From: an uncultured Bacilli bacterium
Lineage (GTDB): Bacteria; Bacillota_I; Bacilli_A; RF39; UBA660
Assembly: GCA_947589735.1 (NCBI GenBank)
Contig: CANQCR010000001.1
Span: 95,809 to 159,808 of the forward strand
DNA: 64,000 nucleotides
Reading direction: 5' to 3'
The position numbers and the translations under genes were made by a program. Shown piece by piece: positions 14,905 through 60,752 of this stretch (within the stretch, counting starts at the first letter, position 1; every line of letters begins with the position of its first letter). The notes under the pieces were generated by a model that saw only the letters and a program-made list of their open reading frames with translations, searched no databases and was not told the origin of the DNA.

Positions 14905-15198
14905 ATGAATTTCTATAACCCTTATTTATATTCTATGCCCGTTGAGGCAGCCGCACCAAGTTTACTGAGTAGATTTAGTTTTTCATCGCTTATTAATGGC
15001 GCTAGTAGAACTTTAAATCTTGTCAATCAAGCTATTCCCGTTGTTAAACAAATGTCACCGATGATGAAAAACTTAAAAACGATGTTTAACGTTATGAATG
15101 AGTTTAAAAAAGCGGATATTGAAAATAGTATTCAAAGTATTGAAGAAGCCAATAATATTGTAAGAACCTCTAGTGACGGTCCTACTTTCTTCATCTAA
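14905..15198 (+). CDS. YqfQ/VrrA-family small protein
   Basis: SRTLNLVNQAIPVVKQMSPMMKN, C-terminal GPTFF; TAAGGAGG RBS; CATATAAT -10 upstream. Confidence 0.65.
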   Translation: MNFYNPYLYSMPVEAAAPSLLSRFSFSSLINGASRTLNLVNQAIPVVKQMSPMMKNLKTMFNVMNEFKKADIENSIQSIEEANNIVRTSSDGPTFFI

Positions 15199-45411: not shown

Positions 45412-46593
45412 CTATTCAACTTCTTTCATTTCTTCTATCGCAACATAATCGCTAATATCTTCATAAACACTAAAGAAGACATCCATCTCAACGCCTGATG
45501 GAATTATTTTACTATCAATAACGTGATGCGAAATAATATATTCATCTTCCTTTAGGGTTTGACGCATCTTTTCATAAGCAAGATTAATAGCCTGAAGTTT
45601 TACTTCTTCGACCACACCCATACCAGATTTAATAATTACTTCTTCTTGTTTTTCTTTTACCAAACTAATTGGCAAAACGTCACTTTTTAATAGTACTACT
45701 TCTTCCCTTATTTTATCATTAAATGGATGAAAATTAAATAATTCAAGCCGATTATTAAATAATTTGACACTATAAACTGTCTTACTTTTACCCGTCTTTT
45801 CCTCTTCATAATAATTAAAAGGATATTTAACTTTCGTCTGGTACCACACTTCTCCGTAAACTTTTCCTGTTGCCGCCACTGTCTTTTTATACTCATCATT
45901 TAAATAAATATAACCACTAATTATAATATCGCCCTTTTTAACATAAGCATACTTATTTTTAATAATTTGACCATCTTTGGCATAGATATCTCTAATAATA
46001 GCGTTCTTTTTAGCGACGACGTGTTGATACTTAGCTTCTTTTTTTTCTTGGGATACAATTCGGGGTTCGAAACGAACAACATAGCGTGTTCCAACCGTTT
46101 CAATTTCCAACCACTCAATCTCATCGTGATACAGCTTAAGGATGTTTTCTTTAACATTTTGTAAATAGGTATAGTCTTTCTTAAAATGATACTTAGAAAG
46201 ATCATATTGTTTTAAAGTTTTCATAAGACGCGTACGCATATCGTTATCATTAGTAATTATTTTAACGTCAAAAATCATATGACTTAAAATAACTACTACC
46301 ATTATAGCTATGAAAACCGTTATTAGCACATGCCAATATTTTAAAATCTGCCTTCTTTTTTCTTCTATTCCTAAATAACGAATAACTTTTAACTCATAAA
46401 TCGTATTTAACGCTAGCAATTTATCAAAATCAGCATAATTGATAATTATCTCATAACGATGCGGATTAATTTTTTTGACGTCTAATAAAGCAATTTTATT
46501 TTTGTGAATACGCAAAATAAAACGTTCAATATTATTACCATCAATCCTTATACATACTTTGCTCTTCATAACATCGATAACATTGTTTTTCAT
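45412..46593 (-). CDS. yqfD: Sporulation protein YqfD
   Basis: IERF, single TM, IEWL.I...GT, VAKKNAII, VKKGDIIISG, A.G.V.GEVWY. Confidence 0.88.
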   Translation of the reverse strand: MKNNVIDVMKSKVCIRIDGNNIERFILRIHKNKIALLDVKKINPHRYEIIINYADFDKLLALNTIYELKVIRYLGIEEKRRQILKYWHVLITVFIAIMVVVILSHMIFDVKIITNDNDMRTRLMKTLKQYDLSKYHFKKDYTYLQNVKENILKLYHDEIEWLEIETVGTRYVVRFEPRIVSQEKKEAKYQHVVAKKNAIIRDIYAKDGQIIKNKYAYVKKGDIIISGYIYLNDEYKKTVAATGKVYGEVWYQTKVKYPFNYYEEEKTGKSKTVYSVKLFNNRLELFNFHPFNDKIREEVVLLKSDVLPISLVKEKQEEVIIKSGMGVVEEVKLQAINLAYEKMRQTLKEDEYIISHHVIDSKIIPSGVEMDVFFSVYEDISDYVAIEEMKEVE

Positions 46594-46596
46594 AAA

Positions 46597-46821
46597 TCAC
46601 CTAAATTCGATACTTTTAACTTCTCCTTTAATTAATAACTCATCATCTAATAGTTTAGAAATAATTAAATCTTTACCGCTAATCCTAATATTGCCACCTT
46701 CATATTTTAAAGTAATCGCATCATCACTAAAAGAAATAATCTCAAGATAATTGACAATATCTAGAGTATTATTTTTTAAAGTCAGAGAAAAACGATGATC
46801 AAAGATATATTCTCGGATCAA
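46597..46821 (-). CDS. yqfC: YabP/YqfC-family sporulation protein
   Basis: I.NY..I..F, G.I.I.G.DL.I..L, I.G.V..I.F; directly upstream of yqfD. Confidence 0.8.
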   Translation of the reverse strand: MIREYIFDHRFSLTLKNNTLDIVNYLEIISFSDDAITLKYEGGNIRISGKDLIISKLLDDELLIKGEVKSIEFR

Positions 46822-46872
46822 ACTATCACCTATTTAAATATATTCATATCCATAAAAAAAAGGACTATGTCC

Positions 46873-47223
46873 TTAATCACGAGCTTTAAAAATAAGACCA
46901 AATACAAAGGAAAAAACAATCGCGCTAACGATACCAGCCGAGGTAAGGTCAAACATCCCCGTAAAAAGGCCCATCACACCAAAATTACTTACAGTATCCA
47001 TCGTTCCGTGAATGAGTAAATGGCCAAAACTAGTTATAGGAACAAGAGCTCCCCCACCACACCATAAAACAAACTTATCATAAATATCAAAGGCATCCAA
47101 AAGAGACCCTAAAACGACAAACAAGCTCGTTATATGACCTGGTGTTAGCTTTGTATTATCAAGAATTATTTGACCAATAAGGCAAACGACGCCAGCGAAA
47201 AGAAAAGCATTAAAGTATATCAT
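46873..47223 (-). CDS. spoVAE: Stage V sporulation protein AE (SpoVAEb type)
   Basis: AFL.AG..CLIGQ, KLTPGHI, GALVPITSFG, TSAGI. Confidence 0.9.
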   Translation of the reverse strand: MIYFNAFLFAGVVCLIGQIILDNTKLTPGHITSLFVVLGSLLDAFDIYDKFVLWCGGGALVPITSFGHLLIHGTMDTVSNFGVMGLFTGMFDLTSAGIVSAIVFSFVFGLIFKARD

Positions 47224-48208
47224 CCGTTACCTCCAAACTAATGGCATGACTAATACTTGGAATAGATAATTTTTGATTGACCATCGCTGGAGATAATAAG
47301 GCACCGGTCGCTACTAATAAAACCCGGGTAATTTTACCTTCCAGCATTTTTTTATAAACATAACTATTAAAAACAAGAGGCATACAAGCCGGTCCACTAC
47401 CACCTGCAAAAACCGGTTGATGATTTAGGTCATAAATCATACACGCGGTATCATCATAATTATCTAACTCCATATTATATTCACTTTTCATATAGTCAAC
47501 CAATATTCTTTTACCATAAATACCTAGGTCCCCTGTTAAAATTAAATCATAATAATTAGGTTCTCTTTTTAATGATGTCAAATGATCATAAATCGTACTA
47601 GCCGCACTAGGAGCCATAACCGCTCCCATATTCATCGAATCAGTTATTCCTAAATCGATAACCCGACCAATCGTCGCACTTTCTACTTTTATCTGACTAG
47701 GTTTAGTTGAAATGAGAAAGCTAGCCGCACCCGTTGTCGTAAAAGTTGAGGTCTTTCTTTTAGGCCCACCATATTCAACTGGTTGCCGGAATTGTTTTTC
47801 AGCGCCATTGGTGTGTGATGAGGTTGAAATAAGACAGTTTCTAATTTCATCTTTATCAACCATATTGCTACCGATAATAAGTCCTAAAACGCTCGTTGAA
47901 CAGGCTGAATAAATACCAATTAATGGTATTCCAATCGATGCACTCGCATAATTAGTTGAAACAATTTGATTAAGTAAATCACCCGAAATATGTAAATCAA
48001 TATCGTTTCTTAACTTATTCGTTTTATATAAAACCATATCAACACTATCAACAAGCATTCGACACTCCGCCTGTTCCCATGTCTTTGTTCCACAATAAAA
48101 GTCATTATAAACTTTATCATAATAGCGACCAAATGGTCCTTTACTCTCATATGGTCCAGCAATGGTACTTACTTCATTTAAATAGACATTACTATATTTA
48201 AAAGTCAT
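47210..48208 (-). CDS. spoVAD: Stage V sporulation protein AD
   Basis: WEQAE, GDLLNQ, YSACST, EKQFR.P.EYG, TGDLG, GGSGPAC, ATGALLSP. Confidence 0.93.
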   Translation of the reverse strand: MTFKYSNVYLNEVSTIAGPYESKGPFGRYYDKVYNDFYCGTKTWEQAECRMLVDSVDMVLYKTNKLRNDIDLHISGDLLNQIVSTNYASASIGIPLIGIYSACSTSVLGLIIGSNMVDKDEIRNCLISTSSHTNGAEKQFRQPVEYGGPKRKTSTFTTTGAASFLISTKPSQIKVESATIGRVIDLGITDSMNMGAVMAPSAASTIYDHLTSLKREPNYYDLILTGDLGIYGKRILVDYMKSEYNMELDNYDDTACMIYDLNHQPVFAGGSGPACMPLVFNSYVYKKMLEGKITRVLLVATGALLSPAMVNQKLSIPSISHAISLEVTDDIL

Positions 48209-48209
48209 C

Positions 48210-48650
48210 TTAGCCTCCCATAATTAAATAGCGAAGTAACCCAAAAAAATAGGCACTTACTACCCCACACATAATAACCGTTCCGGCAAGTTTAAACATA
48301 TTAGCGCCCATTCCGGTAACGATACCCTCTTTTTTATATTCTAAAGTAGCGCTCATCATCGAATGTGCAAAACCAGTAATGGGTATAATTAACCCACAAC
48401 GCGCAAAAGATACCATCTTATCAAAAAATCCTAAGCAAGTTAAAAAACACCCTAGAAAAACTAAAGTAATAATCATAATCGTACTTGCTTCTTTCGTTGG
48501 AATACTAAATAGATAACTATAGATATCTACTAAAAATTGACCTAAAACACCAACGAGCCCACCGACGATAAAGGCAATTAAACCATTATACAAGCGATTC
48601 TCTTTCGGGCAATGTTTATCGACCAATGCTTTATATTTATTTTTATCCAT
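48210..48650 (-). CDS. spoVAC: Stage V sporulation protein AC
   Basis: AFIVGG....GQ, IPITGFAHS, EYKKEG...G.GANMFKLAG.V. Confidence 0.92.
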   Translation of the reverse strand: MDKNKYKALVDKHCPKENRLYNGLIAFIVGGLVGVLGQFLVDIYSYLFSIPTKEASTIMIITLVFLGCFLTCLGFFDKMVSFARCGLIIPITGFAHSMMSATLEYKKEGIVTGMGANMFKLAGTVIMCGVVSAYFFGLLRYLIMGG

Positions 48651-55418: not shown

Positions 55419-56597
55419 TTAACCTCGTCTTTTCTTTTTCTTCTTTCTTTTATGGGATAACCATAAGCCCATTATAAATAATAATACTATTAAAGCTATT
55501 CCCAAATAAATTAAATAGTATGGAGGAATAACAATAATCATCGCTGGTGTGACTAAAACATCTTCTTTATATAGTACCTCATCACCACAGGAAACGGTAA
55601 AAGTACCTAACTTATCCCCTACTTTCATCTCCTTAGTGATAGCTCGAAGGCCATCGTAATTTTCTTTAAAATCACAGTTAACTCTCATATACTTCACGAT
55701 ATCTTCTTTAATACTAACAGGATAAGAGATAACTTCATCATTAATTAGCGTAATATCTGTAATATTCGTATCTTTCTTTAAAACGAGACGCTCATCAAAA
55801 TTATTAAAATAATAGGTATATATCTCTTTAGCATCGTTATAATGATTATTCGGGTTATTATAAGGAGCACCTAAAGTAACTAATAAGTAACTTACATTAT
55901 TATGATGCGCAGTACTAGCAAAGCATAAACCAGCATCATAAGTAAACCCTGTCTTACTACCATCAATAAGACCTTTAACAATCTTAGATGTAGCTTTAGA
56001 TGCCTTAAAGGTATGTTTACCATTCGAAGTTATATATTCACTAGCTGTAAATATTGCTTTAAAAGTTTCATTTTGTAAAGCCACCTTTAGAAGCTCGGCA
56101 ACATCTTTAGCTGTTGAATAATTATTAGGGTTATCTAAGCCAACCGGATTAGCAAAACTTGTATTCGTAAGGCCTAATTCTTTTGCTTTAGCATTCATGG
56201 CTTTCGCAAAATTATCAATACTTCCCGCTGTACTGATGGCTAGAGCTTGGGCAGCCTCCGCACCAGATGGCAATAATAAGCCATATAATAAGTCCCGATA
56301 TGTGACTTTTTCTCCTAAAGTAAACCCGGCTTGATAGGCATTCTCTTCCCTTAAGGTCTTATACATATCGCTAGTCATTGTAACTTTAGCATCCAAGTCT
56401 TCAATATAATCTAATGATACTAAAGCCGTCATTATTTTAGTAAGACTTGCAATCGGTACGACATCTTCTTCATTTAAAGCGTATATAACACTATCATCAT
56501 TCATATTGTATAAGATAACATTTTTAGATTTTATATCAAGAGCCCAAGTGAAAGTTGGCCATAGAAGTAATAATATTAATAAACTAATCTTTTTCAT
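55419..56597 (-). CDS. D-alanyl-D-alanine carboxypeptidase (S11), C-terminally membrane-anchored
   Basis: ASLTKIMT (SxxK), PSGA in place of SxN, F.NPVGL, KTGFT..AG, C-terminal TM with basic tail. Confidence 0.88.
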   Translation of the reverse strand: MKKISLLILLLLWPTFTWALDIKSKNVILYNMNDDSVIYALNEEDVVPIASLTKIMTALVSLDYIEDLDAKVTMTSDMYKTLREENAYQAGFTLGEKVTYRDLLYGLLLPSGAEAAQALAISTAGSIDNFAKAMNAKAKELGLTNTSFANPVGLDNPNNYSTAKDVAELLKVALQNETFKAIFTASEYITSNGKHTFKASKATSKIVKGLIDGSKTGFTYDAGLCFASTAHHNNVSYLLVTLGAPYNNPNNHYNDAKEIYTYYFNNFDERLVLKKDTNITDITLINDEVISYPVSIKEDIVKYMRVNCDFKENYDGLRAITKEMKVGDKLGTFTVSCGDEVLYKEDVLVTPAMIIVIPPYYLIYLGIALIVLLFIMGLWLSHKRKKKKKRRG

Positions 56598-56913
56598 TTA
56601 TATTCCTCATCATATCATATTGTTTGTATAAATATTGAACACCATTTTCAAGCTTGAAATAATGCCGGACATAAGGTATTAAAAAAGCCATCAAAATTAG
56701 AGCAATAAAACGAAAAACCATAACTTTAAGAGAGACGATTAAACTGATAAATAATAGGATAGCATATGTTAAAGTTACAAAAAGATGAATTAAACGTTCG
56801 TGCTGAAAAAACTGAATCTTAATTAAATGTTCCTTAATTACTTCATCATCAATATGATAGTTTCTTATTTTATCATCAATTAAAGCAATATAATCATATA
56901 AATACTTTCGCAT
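56584..56913 (-). CDS. Conserved hypothetical two-TM protein
   Basis: FFQHERLIHL.VT, PY..HY..LEN.VQ; overlaps the dac start. Confidence 0.65.
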   Translation of the reverse strand: MRKYLYDYIALIDDKIRNYHIDDEVIKEHLIKIQFFQHERLIHLFVTLTYAILLFISLIVSLKVMVFRFIALILMAFLIPYVRHYFKLENGVQYLYKQYDMMRNINEKD

Positions 56914-56984: not shown

Positions 56985-57077
56985 TGGCGGAGCAGGCGAG
57001 ATTTGAACTCGCGCACCAGTTTCCCGGTCTACACCCTTAGCAGGGGCGCCTCTTCAGCCGAACTTGAGTACTACTCC
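56985..57077 (-). tRNA. tRNA-Ser(GCU)
   Basis: Cloverleaf with long variable arm; CGCCC-CT-GCT-AA-GGGTG; G73 and CCA. Confidence 0.93.
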
Positions 57078-57138: not shown

Positions 57139-57771
57139 TTATGCAATAAGTTGATGCTTTAATTTTTCAAGGACTTTGTGTTCTTTTCTAGAAACTTGAA
57201 CCTGACTCATACCAAGAATAGAAGCAACCTCCGTTTGGGTCATATCTTCCATATAACGTTTACTTATTAAGTCTAATTCTTCATAGCTTAATTTATTTAG
57301 TTCTTCCTTAAGATCTAAAGCGTCATATTCATCAAGGCCACTATCTACTTGCATCTCATCAATATCTAGTAAAGTACTTGTACTATTTAAAGCTTCAGCA
57401 ACTTGCCATTCATCAATTTCCAAAAACTCAGCTAACTCTTTGATGGTTGGCTTTCGCATTAAGTGTTGTGTTAAATAGGTATTAACTCTTTCAACTTCTG
57501 CATATAACCGCGATATTCCCCGGCTTACTTTAACACCTTTATCCTCCCTTACTAATTTCTTCATCTCACCTAAAATGTATGTATAGGCATATGTTGAAAA
57601 CTTTGTCATTGCCTTATCATCATAATTATGGTAAGCATTAATAAGACCAATACATCCAACTTGAAATAAATCTTCTTTGTTGGGATAATTCTTAAAATAT
57701 CGCATAACCGCATATATCAATTTTTCGTATTCTAATATGAGTTCTTCCAATTTATCAGTCTTATCGCACAT
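57139..57771 (-). CDS. sigF: Forespore sigma factor, SigF-like, short N-terminus (start uncertain: ATG 57771 or TTG 57750)
   Basis: EDLFQVGCIGL, KFSTYA...I.GE, KVSR, TQTEVA..LGMSQVQVSR; follows a STAS gene. Confidence 0.75.
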   Translation of the reverse strand: MCDKTDKLEELILEYEKLIYAVMRYFKNYPNKEDLFQVGCIGLINAYHNYDDKAMTKFSTYAYTYILGEMKKLVREDKGVKVSRGISRLYAEVERVNTYLTQHLMRKPTIKELAEFLEIDEWQVAEALNSTSTLLDIDEMQVDSGLDEYDALDLKEELNKLSYEELDLISKRYMEDMTQTEVASILGMSQVQVSRKEHKVLEKLKHQLIA

Positions 57772-58073
57772 AATTCATTACTGATCTCTTCAATATGACT
57801 AGTTAAGTTTTTCTTAACATCATCATTAAGACCACAGATAAAGCTCACCCCCTTTCTCCTCTTTACTAAATCGTGCCAATGAATAAGTGAAGAGATAGCC
57901 GTATTATCAAGTTCTACTACTTCTTCTAAATTGAAAACAATATTATTAAAACCCATATTACCAACAATATTGTTTAAATCTTCATCAATACATTTAATGG
58001 TATATTTATTTAAACTGCCAATAAAACGGATAAATAAAACTTGTTCACGGTATTCGATATTATATGTAAACAT
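57732..58073 (-). CDS. spoIIAA: SpoIIAA-like STAS anti-anti-sigma protein (degenerate)
   Basis: VLFIRF.G.L, IVFNLE.V..LD, ICGL, SNEL.A; GGAGG RBS; overlaps the sigF start. Confidence 0.7.
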   Translation of the reverse strand: MFTYNIEYREQVLFIRFIGSLNKYTIKCIDEDLNNIVGNMGFNNIVFNLEEVVELDNTAISSLIHWHDLVKRRKGVSFICGLNDDVKKNLTSHIEEISNELCAIRLINWKNSY

Positions 58074-58120
58074 TATTACCTCCAACTATTTTAACTATAT
58101 TCCTCTTTCCTATCCCATTT

Positions 58121-58127
58121 TGTCGAA
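58121..58127 (+). promoter_or_regulatory. Spo0A box (0A box)
   Basis: Perfect TGTCGAA about 50 bp upstream of spoIIAA, a classical Spo0A target. Confidence 0.65.
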
Positions 58128-58169
58128 TAAAAAAAAATAATATAGTATTTCTACTATATTATTATTGAT

Positions 58170-59834
58170 TTAATCACTATTTCCTTTTATAAAAGTTAAA
58201 TAACGCTCTTTTACACGCTCTTCACCAAGAAGATGCATTAACTCATAAAGGTCCGGTGTCATTGACCGGCTTGTTAAGGCAACTCTTAAAACCATACTAA
58301 TATCACCGACATGGCCTTTATAAGCATCAGGATTCTCTTTATATTGTTTTACTTCTTTAGCATAACCTAATTCTTCGGATAAATCTTTAAGACGGTTAAA
58401 CCACGTCTCTTTATCATCTTCGGCGTGATAATATTTGTTAAGATATAAATCTAAGATATGATTGATTTCATCTTTATCTTGAATCGTTTTAAAATCATAA
58501 TCGGTGACATTTTGATATAACTCATCAAACATATACCAGATTTGGGATTTAATCATACTAAAGCATGAATAGTCTTTTCGAGGTTTCTTTTGTTCTCTTT
58601 CAATATTGAATAGTTTTGCCGCATAATCAGCATGACGCTCTAAGATAGTTGCAAACTCTTCGTCATATTCTTTAGCCCATTTTAAAGTACCTTCATATAC
58701 TTCACTAGCTTTTAGATAACTGATATAATTTTTAGAAATATTATATAGTTTATCAACATCAAATAATGAACCACTACCGGATACTTTTTTAAAATCAAAT
58801 TTAAAATCATCTAAACCCTTTTCTTTATTAGCATCATACCATTGTTCAAAGTTCGTATTAGCAATCGTCATCAAATATAACTTAACAGCTGGAACAGGTA
58901 TACCTTTTTCATGATAAAAGCTAACGGCAGCTTCAGGGTCCTTTCTTTTACTAAGTTTTCTTTTCTTACCATCCTCTTCTTTCATAATTGGAGATAGATG
59001 TGCATATTTAGGAGCCTTGAAACCTAAAGATGAAAATAATTGGACATGAATAGGCAAAGAACTAATCCATTCATCACCTCTAATAACGTGGGTTGTTCGC
59101 ATCAAATGATCATCGATAGCGTGCGCAAAATGATAAGTAGGAAGACCATCAGATTTTAAGATGACAATATCAAGATCGTTTTCCGGAAACTCGATATCCC
59201 CTTTAACAAGATCGTGAACTTTAATCTTATTATCAAAAGACCCTGGTGATTTAAAACGAATGATATATGGTTCCCCATTTGAAACTTTTTCCTTAATCTC
59301 TTCATTTGTTAAACGCCGGCATTTAGCATATCTTCCGTAATAACCGATTCTCTGTTTACGTTTTTCTTGAATTTGCCTTGTTTCTTCAATCTCTTCAGGT
59401 GAACAAAAGCAAGGATAAGCTAGCCCCTCTTCAATTAAATGCTTAACATAAGCTTGATAGATATCTCGTCTTTTACTTTGGGTATAAGGGCCATAAGCCC
59501 CTTTTTCTTCTGTCTCACTTAACATTCCTTCATCAATCGTTATATCAAAATTATTTAAATCATTAATAATTCCGGTAACACCATTTTCGACTTCTCTTTT
59601 TTGATCGGTATCTTCAATACGAAGATAGAAAACACCATTAGAATCATTAGCGGCTTTTTTCTCAATAAAAGACGCAAATAATGACCCCATATGAACAAAT
59701 CCCGTTGGGGATGGCGCAAAACGGGTTACCACAGCCCCTTCCGGTAAATCTCTTTCCGGATATTTTTCTTCATAATAGCTAACATCACTATCAACATTAG
59801 GTAATAATAAATCAGCTAACTCTTTATTGGTCAT
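58170..59834 (-). CDS. gltX: Glutamate--tRNA ligase
   Basis: TRFAPSPTGFVHMG, LRIEDTD, AYPCFC, PTYHFAHAIDDH, RGDEW, KLSKR. Confidence 0.95.
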   Translation of the reverse strand: MTNKELADLLLPNVDSDVSYYEEKYPERDLPEGAVVTRFAPSPTGFVHMGSLFASFIEKKAANDSNGVFYLRIEDTDQKREVENGVTGIINDLNNFDITIDEGMLSETEEKGAYGPYTQSKRRDIYQAYVKHLIEEGLAYPCFCSPEEIEETRQIQEKRKQRIGYYGRYAKCRRLTNEEIKEKVSNGEPYIIRFKSPGSFDNKIKVHDLVKGDIEFPENDLDIVILKSDGLPTYHFAHAIDDHLMRTTHVIRGDEWISSLPIHVQLFSSLGFKAPKYAHLSPIMKEEDGKKRKLSKRKDPEAAVSFYHEKGIPVPAVKLYLMTIANTNFEQWYDANKEKGLDDFKFDFKKVSGSGSLFDVDKLYNISKNYISYLKASEVYEGTLKWAKEYDEEFATILERHADYAAKLFNIEREQKKPRKDYSCFSMIKSQIWYMFDELYQNVTDYDFKTIQDKDEINHILDLYLNKYYHAEDDKETWFNRLKDLSEELGYAKEVKQYKENPDAYKGHVGDISMVLRVALTSRSMTPDLYELMHLLGEERVKERYLTFIKGNSD

Positions 59835-59915
59835 ATAAAACACCTCTTTTTCATTCTATCATAATTAAATATATTTAACAAGAAAAAAGGTTGGATATCC
59901 CCCAACCTTTAGTAT

Positions 59916-60752
59916 TTATTTAACCGGTGCATTAATCTGTAATTTAGCACTCTCTTTAGCCGCCTCATAAACTTGTTGTAGTCCAACTATGCCGACATAT
60001 TCACTACTACGATCCATAAGAGTACTAAGGGACAATTTTTGCTTGAAACTCTCCTCCTTAGCAGGTGACCATTCCTGATGAGCCGCCACTAAAGCTATAT
60101 CTTTTAAAGCTTCAGGAAAAGTATTATTTGGTGTATTAACTTTACCTGGCCTTGCTAGGAAGCTAGAGTTTAATAAATCCATTATATTCTTAACACGTGG
60201 CGTACTAGATAACTCATCCTCATCAGCATCTAATAAACTTTTATATACCGCTTCCGTATCATTATTAAAGTAAGCTTCAAACATTGTATCAACACCAATG
60301 ATATCACTAATTAAATTAGCAGCCAGAAGTTCTTCTTCATAATCACAAGCACCTTCATTACCAACTAAAGTATTAGCAAGCATCTCGGTAAAGCCCATAT
60401 TAAGAGCACACAAGCTATCATTTTGATTAAATCCATAGTAATTATCTGATGCGGAAATAACGCCTAGTAAACCTTTCATCATTAGATGATGAGGATCACA
60501 TCTCTCTTCTAGGTCTTTCGCACTCAAAAGAATCTCATTACCACGAGCATCATAAGAAACTGGACCGCGTTGTTCGTGTAATGTACTTTTACCCACTTTT
60601 AAATCTTTTATTCTTGCATTTAAAGTATCCAAACTAACAGATGGAAACTGTTGATGGAAAATGGTAATTAAGTGGAAGAGCTCATCTTTAACCTCTGGTG
60701 TCATATTTTGATTTGAATCTAGGCTTTTTTTGATCTCATCTAGGTTAACCAT
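59916..60752 (-). CDS. Hypothetical protein, zincin-like fold with no HExxH
   Basis: Y....NEI.L, then HLMMKGLLGVIS, then GF...ALNMGFTEMLA, YEEE. Confidence 0.5.
   Translation of the reverse strand: MVNLDEIKKSLDSNQNMTPEVKDELFHLITIFHQQFPSVSLDTLNARIKDLKVGKSTLHEQRGPVSYDARGNEILLSAKDLEERCDPHHLMMKGLLGVISASDNYYGFNQNDSLCALNMGFTEMLANTLVGNEGACDYEEELLAANLISDIIGVDTMFEAYFNNDTEAVYKSLLDADEDELSSTPRVKNIMDLLNSSFLARPGKVNTPNNTFPEALKDIALVAAHQEWSPAKEESFKQKLSLSTLMDRSSEYVGIVGLQQVYEAAKESAKLQINAPVK

Follow-up and report, generated by a model that had tools for sequence, protein, structure and literature searches.

In the spoIIA operon of Bacillus and the Clostridia, a STAS-fold antagonist with a phosphorylatable serine in a DSSG motif (SpoIIAA), a kinase (SpoIIAB) and the sporulation sigma factor sigma-F (sigF) are encoded together, and with the phosphatase SpoIIE they form a partner switch. 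The available portions of PMC3533761 and of a preprint (10.1101/2022.02.25.481979) describe spoIIAA, spoIIAB, sigF and spoIIE as kept in spore-formers of all lineages, and the former includes Candidatus Arthromitus, whose genome is only 1.5 Mb, among the bacteria that keep all four. For the order RF39, PMC10868615 states, in the sections available, that spoIIAB and spoIIE are largely missing while spoIIGA and other genes are present, and predicts spore formation under a different regulation. Here we describe a minus-strand operon at positions 57139-58127 of a 64,000-nucleotide stretch of DNA (the window) from an uncultured RF39 bacterium (contig CANQCR010000001.1), in which a STAS gene runs directly into a sigma factor gene. 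Very probably this is the spoIIA operon of a gut lineage with reduced genomes, from which spoIIAB was deleted once, spoIIE was lost and the partner switch has gone. The arrangement is real, holds across the lineage and deviates from a module considered universal among spore-formers.

The bare absence of spoIIAB and spoIIE in RF39 is already in print, as the available sections of PMC10868615 show. This was the only mention of the absence in our literature search, and the terms spoIIAB, spoIIE and spoIIAA do not occur in the text of PMC11536998. The gene pattern reported here is unlike the descriptions of ML615J-28 and RFN20 in those same sections of PMC10868615. We found no published account of the retained STAS gene without its serine, the clean deletion between spoIIAA and sigF, the conserved Spo0A box (0A box) or the repeated losses of the STAS gene.

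Searches were made in 61 genomes: the window's own (1.44 Mb in 26 contigs, 31% G+C, estimated 95% complete), 36 further members of its family from 18 genera, a single sister-family genome from the same order, and 23 genomes of the class that belong to other families. Within the window's own genome, the SpoIIAB (TIGR01925) and HATPase_c_2 (PF13581) models match only the ATPase domains of frames of 391-760 amino acids, none above cut-off, and the HATPase_c_2 matches are confined to two histidine kinases of 465 and 652 amino acids. The SpoIIE model (TIGR02865) has no match there, the sole PP2C protein being Stp1-like and 256 amino acids long. Queries from the two closest relatives with the canonical operon (SpoIIAB of G042 and G050, SpoIIE of G042; G, L and C numbers are our labels for genomes, loci and contigs of the window's own genome) gave a best E value of 0.03 when this genome was searched by tblastn. 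The sequence-only reading had treated the kinase as lost, a view that depends on there being no copy elsewhere, and it holds: profile searches and tblastn reveal no distal SpoIIAB or SpoIIE in this genome and no canonical spoIIAA-spoIIAB-sigF operon, and the only other gene resembling sigF or sigG is sigG by both score and tree. That gene, at the end of contig C12, was considered as a hidden second sigF and rejected, because it scores 357 bits on the SigG model NF006071 and falls in the SigG clade.

The same pattern extends across the family. SpoIIAB exceeds its cut-off in 0 of the 37 family genomes (the window's own included) and not in the sister-family genome, and in 7 of the 23 genomes from other families. 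SpoIIE matches (126-409 bits, covering from 320 to all 764 model positions) occur in exactly those seven genomes, although even there all fall short of the curated cut-off of 490.8; in three more genomes only the PP2C part of the model is matched, and nothing was found in the 38 genomes that represent the two families of the order. Because identical searches gave seven positives, the absence from all 38 indicates a family-wide loss rather than an assembly gap. Genome reduction alone does not explain this loss, since G042 has a genome of only 0.9 Mb and yet retains the canonical switch.

The sequence-only reading described a 0A box followed by a STAS gene that overlaps a SigF-like gene, leaving no room for spoIIAB, and the open reading frame (ORF) coordinates agree (Table 1); there is no space for a kinase gene between the two ORFs in the window. 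Their overlap shrinks to 19 nucleotides if the sigma gene begins at TTG codon 8, which is the start in some relatives. The longest STAS ORF (57732-58085, minus strand) has 117 codons for amino acids and a TTG start, but the likely start, judging from a GGAGG five nucleotides 5' of it, is the ATG at 58073. The spacing between STAS stop and sigma start in kinase-less loci is -40 to +21 nucleotides (at L102, whose longest sigma ORF is over-extended, the aligned start was used), compared with 347-473 nucleotides, filled by spoIIAB, in seven canonical loci. The canonical relatives G042 and G050 carry dacF-spoIIAA-spoIIAB-sigF-spoVAC-spoVAD-spoVAE in a row, with FMDSSG in SpoIIAA. The sister-family genome G037 has a dac gene nearby and then STAS-sigma-spoVAC-spoVAD-spoVAE, without the kinase. 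STAS and sigma genes are also followed by spoVAC-spoVAD-spoVAE at the kinase-less loci of G027, G028 and L102, and G023, likewise kinase-less, has dac-STAS-sigma.

A maximum-likelihood tree of 38 sigma factors, 21 of them kinase-less and eight of them SigG, unites all 21 kinase-less sequences in a single clade (support 94/85), to which the kinase-linked SigF of G042 is sister (96/87). The eight SigG proteins form a separate clade (96/84), and three SigF entries have long branches. A phylogeny to separate SigF from SigG had been suggested in the sequence-only reading, and it groups the window sigma with SigF and leaves SigG apart. Judged by synteny and by this tree, the STAS and sigma genes are orthologues of spoIIAA and sigF, and the two lines of evidence together point to a single deletion of spoIIAB from between them.

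The sigma protein itself is divergent. Its top NCBIfam model is SigF (TIGR02885), at 164.8 bits where the equivalog cut-off is 321, followed by SigG models at 126 and 113 bits and SigB at 106.8 bits, and its best match in the Protein Data Bank is sigma-F (1L0O_C, E value 7e-29). We rejected a SigB-type stress sigma factor on the basis of these family scores, the neighbouring sporulation genes and the position in the tree. The window protein is ~25-45 amino acids shorter than SigF of model species. The remark in the sequence-only reading that it lacks the usual N-terminal extension is thus correct as to the short N-terminus, but this is nothing special, since kinase-linked SigF proteins of the same class have comparable lengths (181, 197, 207, 217, 223, 236 and 241 amino acids).

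The STAS protein retains the fold of SpoIIAA but not its phosphorylation site. It matches the Pfam STAS family (E value 5.6e-11), and HMMER aligns it with the solved SpoIIAA chains 1TH8_B (E value 2e-6), 1TID_B and 1AUZ_A. The AlphaFold2 model, based on 50 homologues, reaches a mean pLDDT (predicted local distance difference test) of 91.6, and its top Foldseek matches are the SpoIIAA chains 1TIL_B and 1TH8_B (TM 0.83-0.85, root-mean-square deviation 1.9 Å); MlaB chains are also among the matches (TM 0.58-0.60). The gene upstream of sigF thus encodes a STAS-fold antagonist, as in the SpoIIAA/SpoIIAB/sigma-F switch, but one with no phosphorylatable serine in the DSSG motif. Three motif changes noted from the sequence alone are borne out by the HMMER alignment to solved SpoIIAA: FMDSSGLG has become ELDNTAIS, GELDHH has become GSLNKY and GRYK has become HWHD. 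The asparagine occupies a column that holds Ser in 1TH8 and Ala in 1TID, and which we take to be that of the phospho-acceptor Ser58 of SpoIIAA.

Seventy-three kinase-less loci were inspected; they contain 65 distinct sigma sequences, to which the following counts refer. An intact STAS ORF lies just upstream of the sigma gene in 60/65; at L086 the frame is intact but has no ATG, GTG or TTG at the aligned start. Fifty of the 60 STAS proteins were aligned, ten being left out as near-duplicates or for long N-terminal ORF extensions. None of the 50 has Ser in the acceptor column, which instead holds I, L, M, N, C, K, T (4), R, Y, D, H, V or E, whereas DSSG is present in all seven kinase-linked homologues, which retain GELD and GRY as well. 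The Asp ahead of the acceptor column is kept in 49/50 and the Gly three residues on in 41/50. The column after the acceptor holds Ser in six proteins and Thr in one, so the Thr adjacent to the acceptor position in the window protein is not conserved. The STAS proteins of the window's subclade are the most diverged, and have lost the Gly of DxxG as well.

Four of the 65 loci (G017, G019, G033 and L112) have lost the STAS gene and kept sigma, so the STAS protein is not indispensable. Nine codons of the gene and the promoter remain in G017, and five codons remain in L112. In G033, the 0A box now stands directly before sigma. G019 (locus L041) has neither STAS gene nor 0A box, so its sigF must be transcribed differently. 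With branch lengths of 0.16 and 0.30, respectively, the sigma proteins of G017 and G019 do not lie on long branches. G017 (locus L042) and G019 are both species of the window's own genus.

Where it is present, the STAS gene is nevertheless under selection. Ratios of nonsynonymous to synonymous substitution rates (dN/dS, NG86 method) were obtained for 34 loci, from 310 pairs with sigma dS of 0.05-1.5. The medians are 0.34 for STAS and 0.26 for sigma, but dS is near saturation and close pairs are more informative. In these, the values for STAS and sigma, respectively, are 0.02 and 0.09 (L087-L098), 0.04 and 0.04 (L090-L093), 0.13 and 0.04 (L048-L050), 0.15 and 0.03 (L043-L047), and 0.26 and 0.15 (L034-L039). 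STAS values below 1 in close pairs indicate purifying selection on a functional protein, which is most relaxed in the window's own subclade (0.10-0.36).

A second STAS-like ORF of 79 amino acids is present in the same genome outside the window (C24:2697-2936, locus L144), beside MurT/GatD-like genes and one that resembles a thioredoxin reductase gene (identities assigned by eye). Similar ORFs of 72-98 amino acids occur in seven other family genomes, including G033, which has no STAS gene at sigF. The best family match of the C24 ORF is spoIIAA, at 26 bits. We rejected it as a hidden canonical SpoIIAA, because it is truncated, reads DNV at the motif, adjoins neither a kinase nor a sigma gene and is patchy in relatives.

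The promoter region of the operon contains a predicted Spo0A site, consistent with an early, Spo0A-controlled operon. In 42/50 aligned loci, a perfect TGTCGAA or its complement precedes the aligned STAS start by 50-65 nucleotides, and the other eight have one-mismatch variants; for comparison, 0.07 boxes of the TGNCGAA type are expected per 220 nucleotides of the same loci. TGTCGAA occurs 81 times on both strands of the 1.44-Mb genome, or ~1 per 18 kb. The box is inverted in the window's subclade.

The remaining sporulation cascade is present, and sporulation therefore looks retained on gene content. The window's own genome encodes Spo0A (261 bits against a cut-off of 200), SigG-like, SigE-like, SigK-like and SigH-like sigma factors, SpoIIGA directly upstream of sigE, SpoIIR, SpoIVA (707 bits) and SpoIID (335 bits), and the window contains spoVAC, spoVAD, spoVAE, a YabP-family gene (yqfC) and yqfD. 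SpoIIR is also found in 35/36 other family genomes and in the sister family. A tally by E value assigns the short sigma factor to 36/36 family genomes, although the match in G026 is a primary sigma factor instead. Upstream of spoIIR, a G[TA]ATAAA box with CAATATA-like bases ~18 nucleotides on was seen by eye in roughly 14 of 21 regions, from the window's own genome, 18 family genomes, G037 and G042 (loci L150-L169 among them). This pattern resembles what we take to be the forespore promoter consensus of sigma-F and sigma-G. In the window's own genome, the box lies on contig C5, upstream of 69997. Contig C3 (76589-81997), also outside the window, carries an 1802-codon ORF whose RpoD-like core is extended by a very long tail.

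These observations suggest the following scheme. The deletion of spoIIAB would have occurred in the ancestor shared by this family and the sister family, with spoIIE lost as well. Sigma-F would be made as Spo0A~P rises at the onset of sporulation, would no longer be held by the SpoIIAA/SpoIIAB/SpoIIE partner switch, and would have its activity set mainly by synthesis. It would still drive spoIIR, and hence SpoIIGA and sigma-E, and the STAS protein would be a dispensable modulator that works independently of phosphorylation. Control of SigF independent of partner switching was already proposed from the sequence alone, and it gains weight from the joint loss of kinase, phosphatase and acceptor Ser: Ser occupies the acceptor column in 0/50 kinase-less homologues, and DSSG is intact in 7/7 kinase-linked ones. 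More tentatively, a predicted spore-forming order may activate sigma-F with no kinase, phosphatase or phosphorylation at all, the STAS protein binding sigma-F or a new partner directly, or no post-translational hold being applied.

Several points weigh against this scheme. The backbone of the tree that joins the SigF subclades and SigG is not resolved, neither the sigma nor the STAS protein comes near its NCBIfam equivalog cut-off, and all of the genomes are metagenome-assembled and 75-97% complete. We know of no observation of spores in this lineage. A non-homologous anti-sigma factor could escape family searches, and the strong purifying selection on STAS in some clades (dN/dS 0.02-0.1) is more readily explained by a real partner than by an optional modulator. 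Moreover, sigma-F is unrestrained and harmful in B. subtilis without spoIIAB, and a complete lack of restraint would be unexpected.

One way to restore restraint is for the STAS protein to be the regulator itself, binding sigma-F stoichiometrically as an anti-sigma factor or holder, so that one protein replaces a three-protein switch. The adjacent or overlapping arrangement of the two genes in 60/65 loci behind one common Spo0A-box promoter would suit such a role, as would the persistence of purifying selection on STAS after the known partners had gone. Non-phosphorylated STAS proteins that act by direct binding do exist, and MlaB, as noted, is among the fold matches. We nonetheless consider this role unlikely. 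The clean STAS deletions with sigma kept, on sigma branches of no great length in G017 and G019, argue that any direct role is non-essential; selection is most relaxed, and the DxxG Gly lost, in the window's own subclade; and we know of no STAS protein that binds a sigma factor directly. Predictions of the STAS-sigma complex from alignments A1 and A2 each scored 0.01, where the mark was 0.32, and count neither way.

About as doubtful is a non-orthologous displacement, in which an unrelated anti-sigma-F protein replaced SpoIIAB and is antagonized by the STAS protein without phosphorylation. The harm done by unrestrained sigma-F in model species and the selection on STAS are consistent with such a replacement, and so is the pattern of conservation in the STAS protein, in which D56 and G59 of DxxG and the core are kept while the GELD, DSSG and GRY motifs, present in all seven kinase-linked homologues, are changed. 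However, no replacement candidate was found, and the operon contains no conserved extra gene. A Fin-type anti-sigma-F protein (PF10955) was rejected because it exceeds its cut-off in 0/61 genomes, and the 109-amino-acid membrane protein encoded downstream of sigma was rejected as a lineage-wide kinase replacement because it is present in 18/61 genomes, from only three genera of the family.

It is less probable still that the lineage is sporeless, and that the pair is a decaying remnant or the sigma factor is reused for something other than forespore expression. The genomes are small and host-associated, STAS has been lost four times, G026 lacks both the sigma factor and SpoIIR, and G019 is without the STAS gene and the 0A box. 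On the other hand, the sigma gene persists in the E-value tally of the family with dN/dS of 0.03-0.15 in close pairs, the 0A box is conserved upstream of STAS, and Spo0A, SpoIIR, SpoIIGA-SigE, SigG, SigK, SpoIID, SpoIVA, spoVA and YqfD are all intact. Finally, that SpoIIAB and SpoIIE are present but were missed in incomplete metagenome bins is barely credible: although the window's own genome is in 26 contigs, is short of complete and has sigG at a contig end, neither gene appears in any of 38 genomes of two families, the same searches found both in seven others, and the operon itself has no room for spoIIAB.

Table 1. Positions in the window of the sigF operon and of the features around it.
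Feature	Position	Strand	Remarks
Glutamyl-tRNA synthetase (gltX)	58170-59843	-	
Spo0A box TGTCGAA	58121-58127		Motif on + strand, inverted relative to the operon; 54 nucleotides 5' of STAS start
GGAGG ribosome-binding site	58079-58083	-	5 nucleotides before STAS ATG; read from sequence
SpoIIAA-orthologous STAS gene	57732-58073	-	113 amino acids; Asn57 in place of phospho-acceptor Ser
Sigma-F orthologue	57139-57771	-	210 amino acids; overlaps end of STAS gene by 40 nucleotides
tRNA-Ser(GCT)	56985-57077	-	
109-amino-acid membrane protein	56584-56913	-	
D-Ala-D-Ala carboxypeptidase	55419-56597	-	
spoVAC, spoVAD, spoVAE	46873-48650	-	Pfam SpoVAC_SpoVAEB and SpoVAD

In the window's genus, the operon has been relocated next to gltX, and spoVA, which in other genera and in canonical operons comes straight after sigF, is displaced ~8.5 kb downstream of it. 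This interval holds rnc, yebC, a GH25 lysozyme gene and dac, and beyond it spoVAC-spoVAD-spoVAE are followed by the YabP-family gene and yqfD (45412-48650, minus strand, for the whole group). An AT-rich hairpin with a T-run, read by eye, lies at 58128-58159 between the synthetase and STAS genes. The 109-amino-acid protein is predicted to contain membrane helices and matches nothing in Pfam or NCBIfam. A 278-amino-acid protein (59916-60752, minus strand), encoded between a ClpC-like ATPase gene and gltX, has no Pfam or NCBIfam match at E <= 0.01. A 97-amino-acid ORF at 14905-15198 (plus strand) has a weak YqfQ-like Pfam match (31.5 bits); we take YqfQ to be a family of small Bacillus proteins whose role is not known.

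A large gut lineage that has sigma-F, SpoIIR and the later cascade but no switch is a natural experiment, which reveals the components of cell-specific sigma-F activation that can be spared and the things a STAS protein can do once its kinase is gone. Predictions of sporulation from lists of marker genes would misjudge these bacteria.

Among described systems, MlaB-MlaF offers a likeness in a small STAS protein that consists of a single domain and has no working phospho-switch, and MlaB is among the structural matches. These matches are weaker than those to SpoIIAA, however, the genes around the locus are unrelated, and there is no ABC ATPase partner close by. The RsbV-RsbW-SigB system shares the combination of a STAS antagonist with a group-3 sigma factor of the SigB/F/G subfamily. 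Unlike that system, the locus described here has neither RsbW nor RsbU, with no HATPase_c_2 protein of the RsbW type found; its neighbours are sporulation genes, the SigB score is below that of SigF, and family match and tree both indicate SigF.

The inventory of RF39 in PMC10868615 resembles our results, as far as its available sections go, in that spoIIGA and spoIID are present and spoIIAB and spoIIE absent. It is a list of the presence or absence of KEGG orthologues, and those sections do not cover the retained STAS gene, the lost Ser, the operon structure, the 0A box or the STAS losses. The closest system is the spoIIA operon with SpoIIE. Both have orthologous STAS and sigma genes with an upstream Spo0A box, dacF and spoVA are neighbours in relatives of the window's bacterium, and spoIIR, SpoIIGA and sigma-E are kept downstream in the pathway. 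The differences are that SpoIIAB and SpoIIE are absent here, DSSG has become DNTA in the window and DxxG in relatives, and the STAS and sigma genes abut or overlap, with the STAS gene dispensable in some species.

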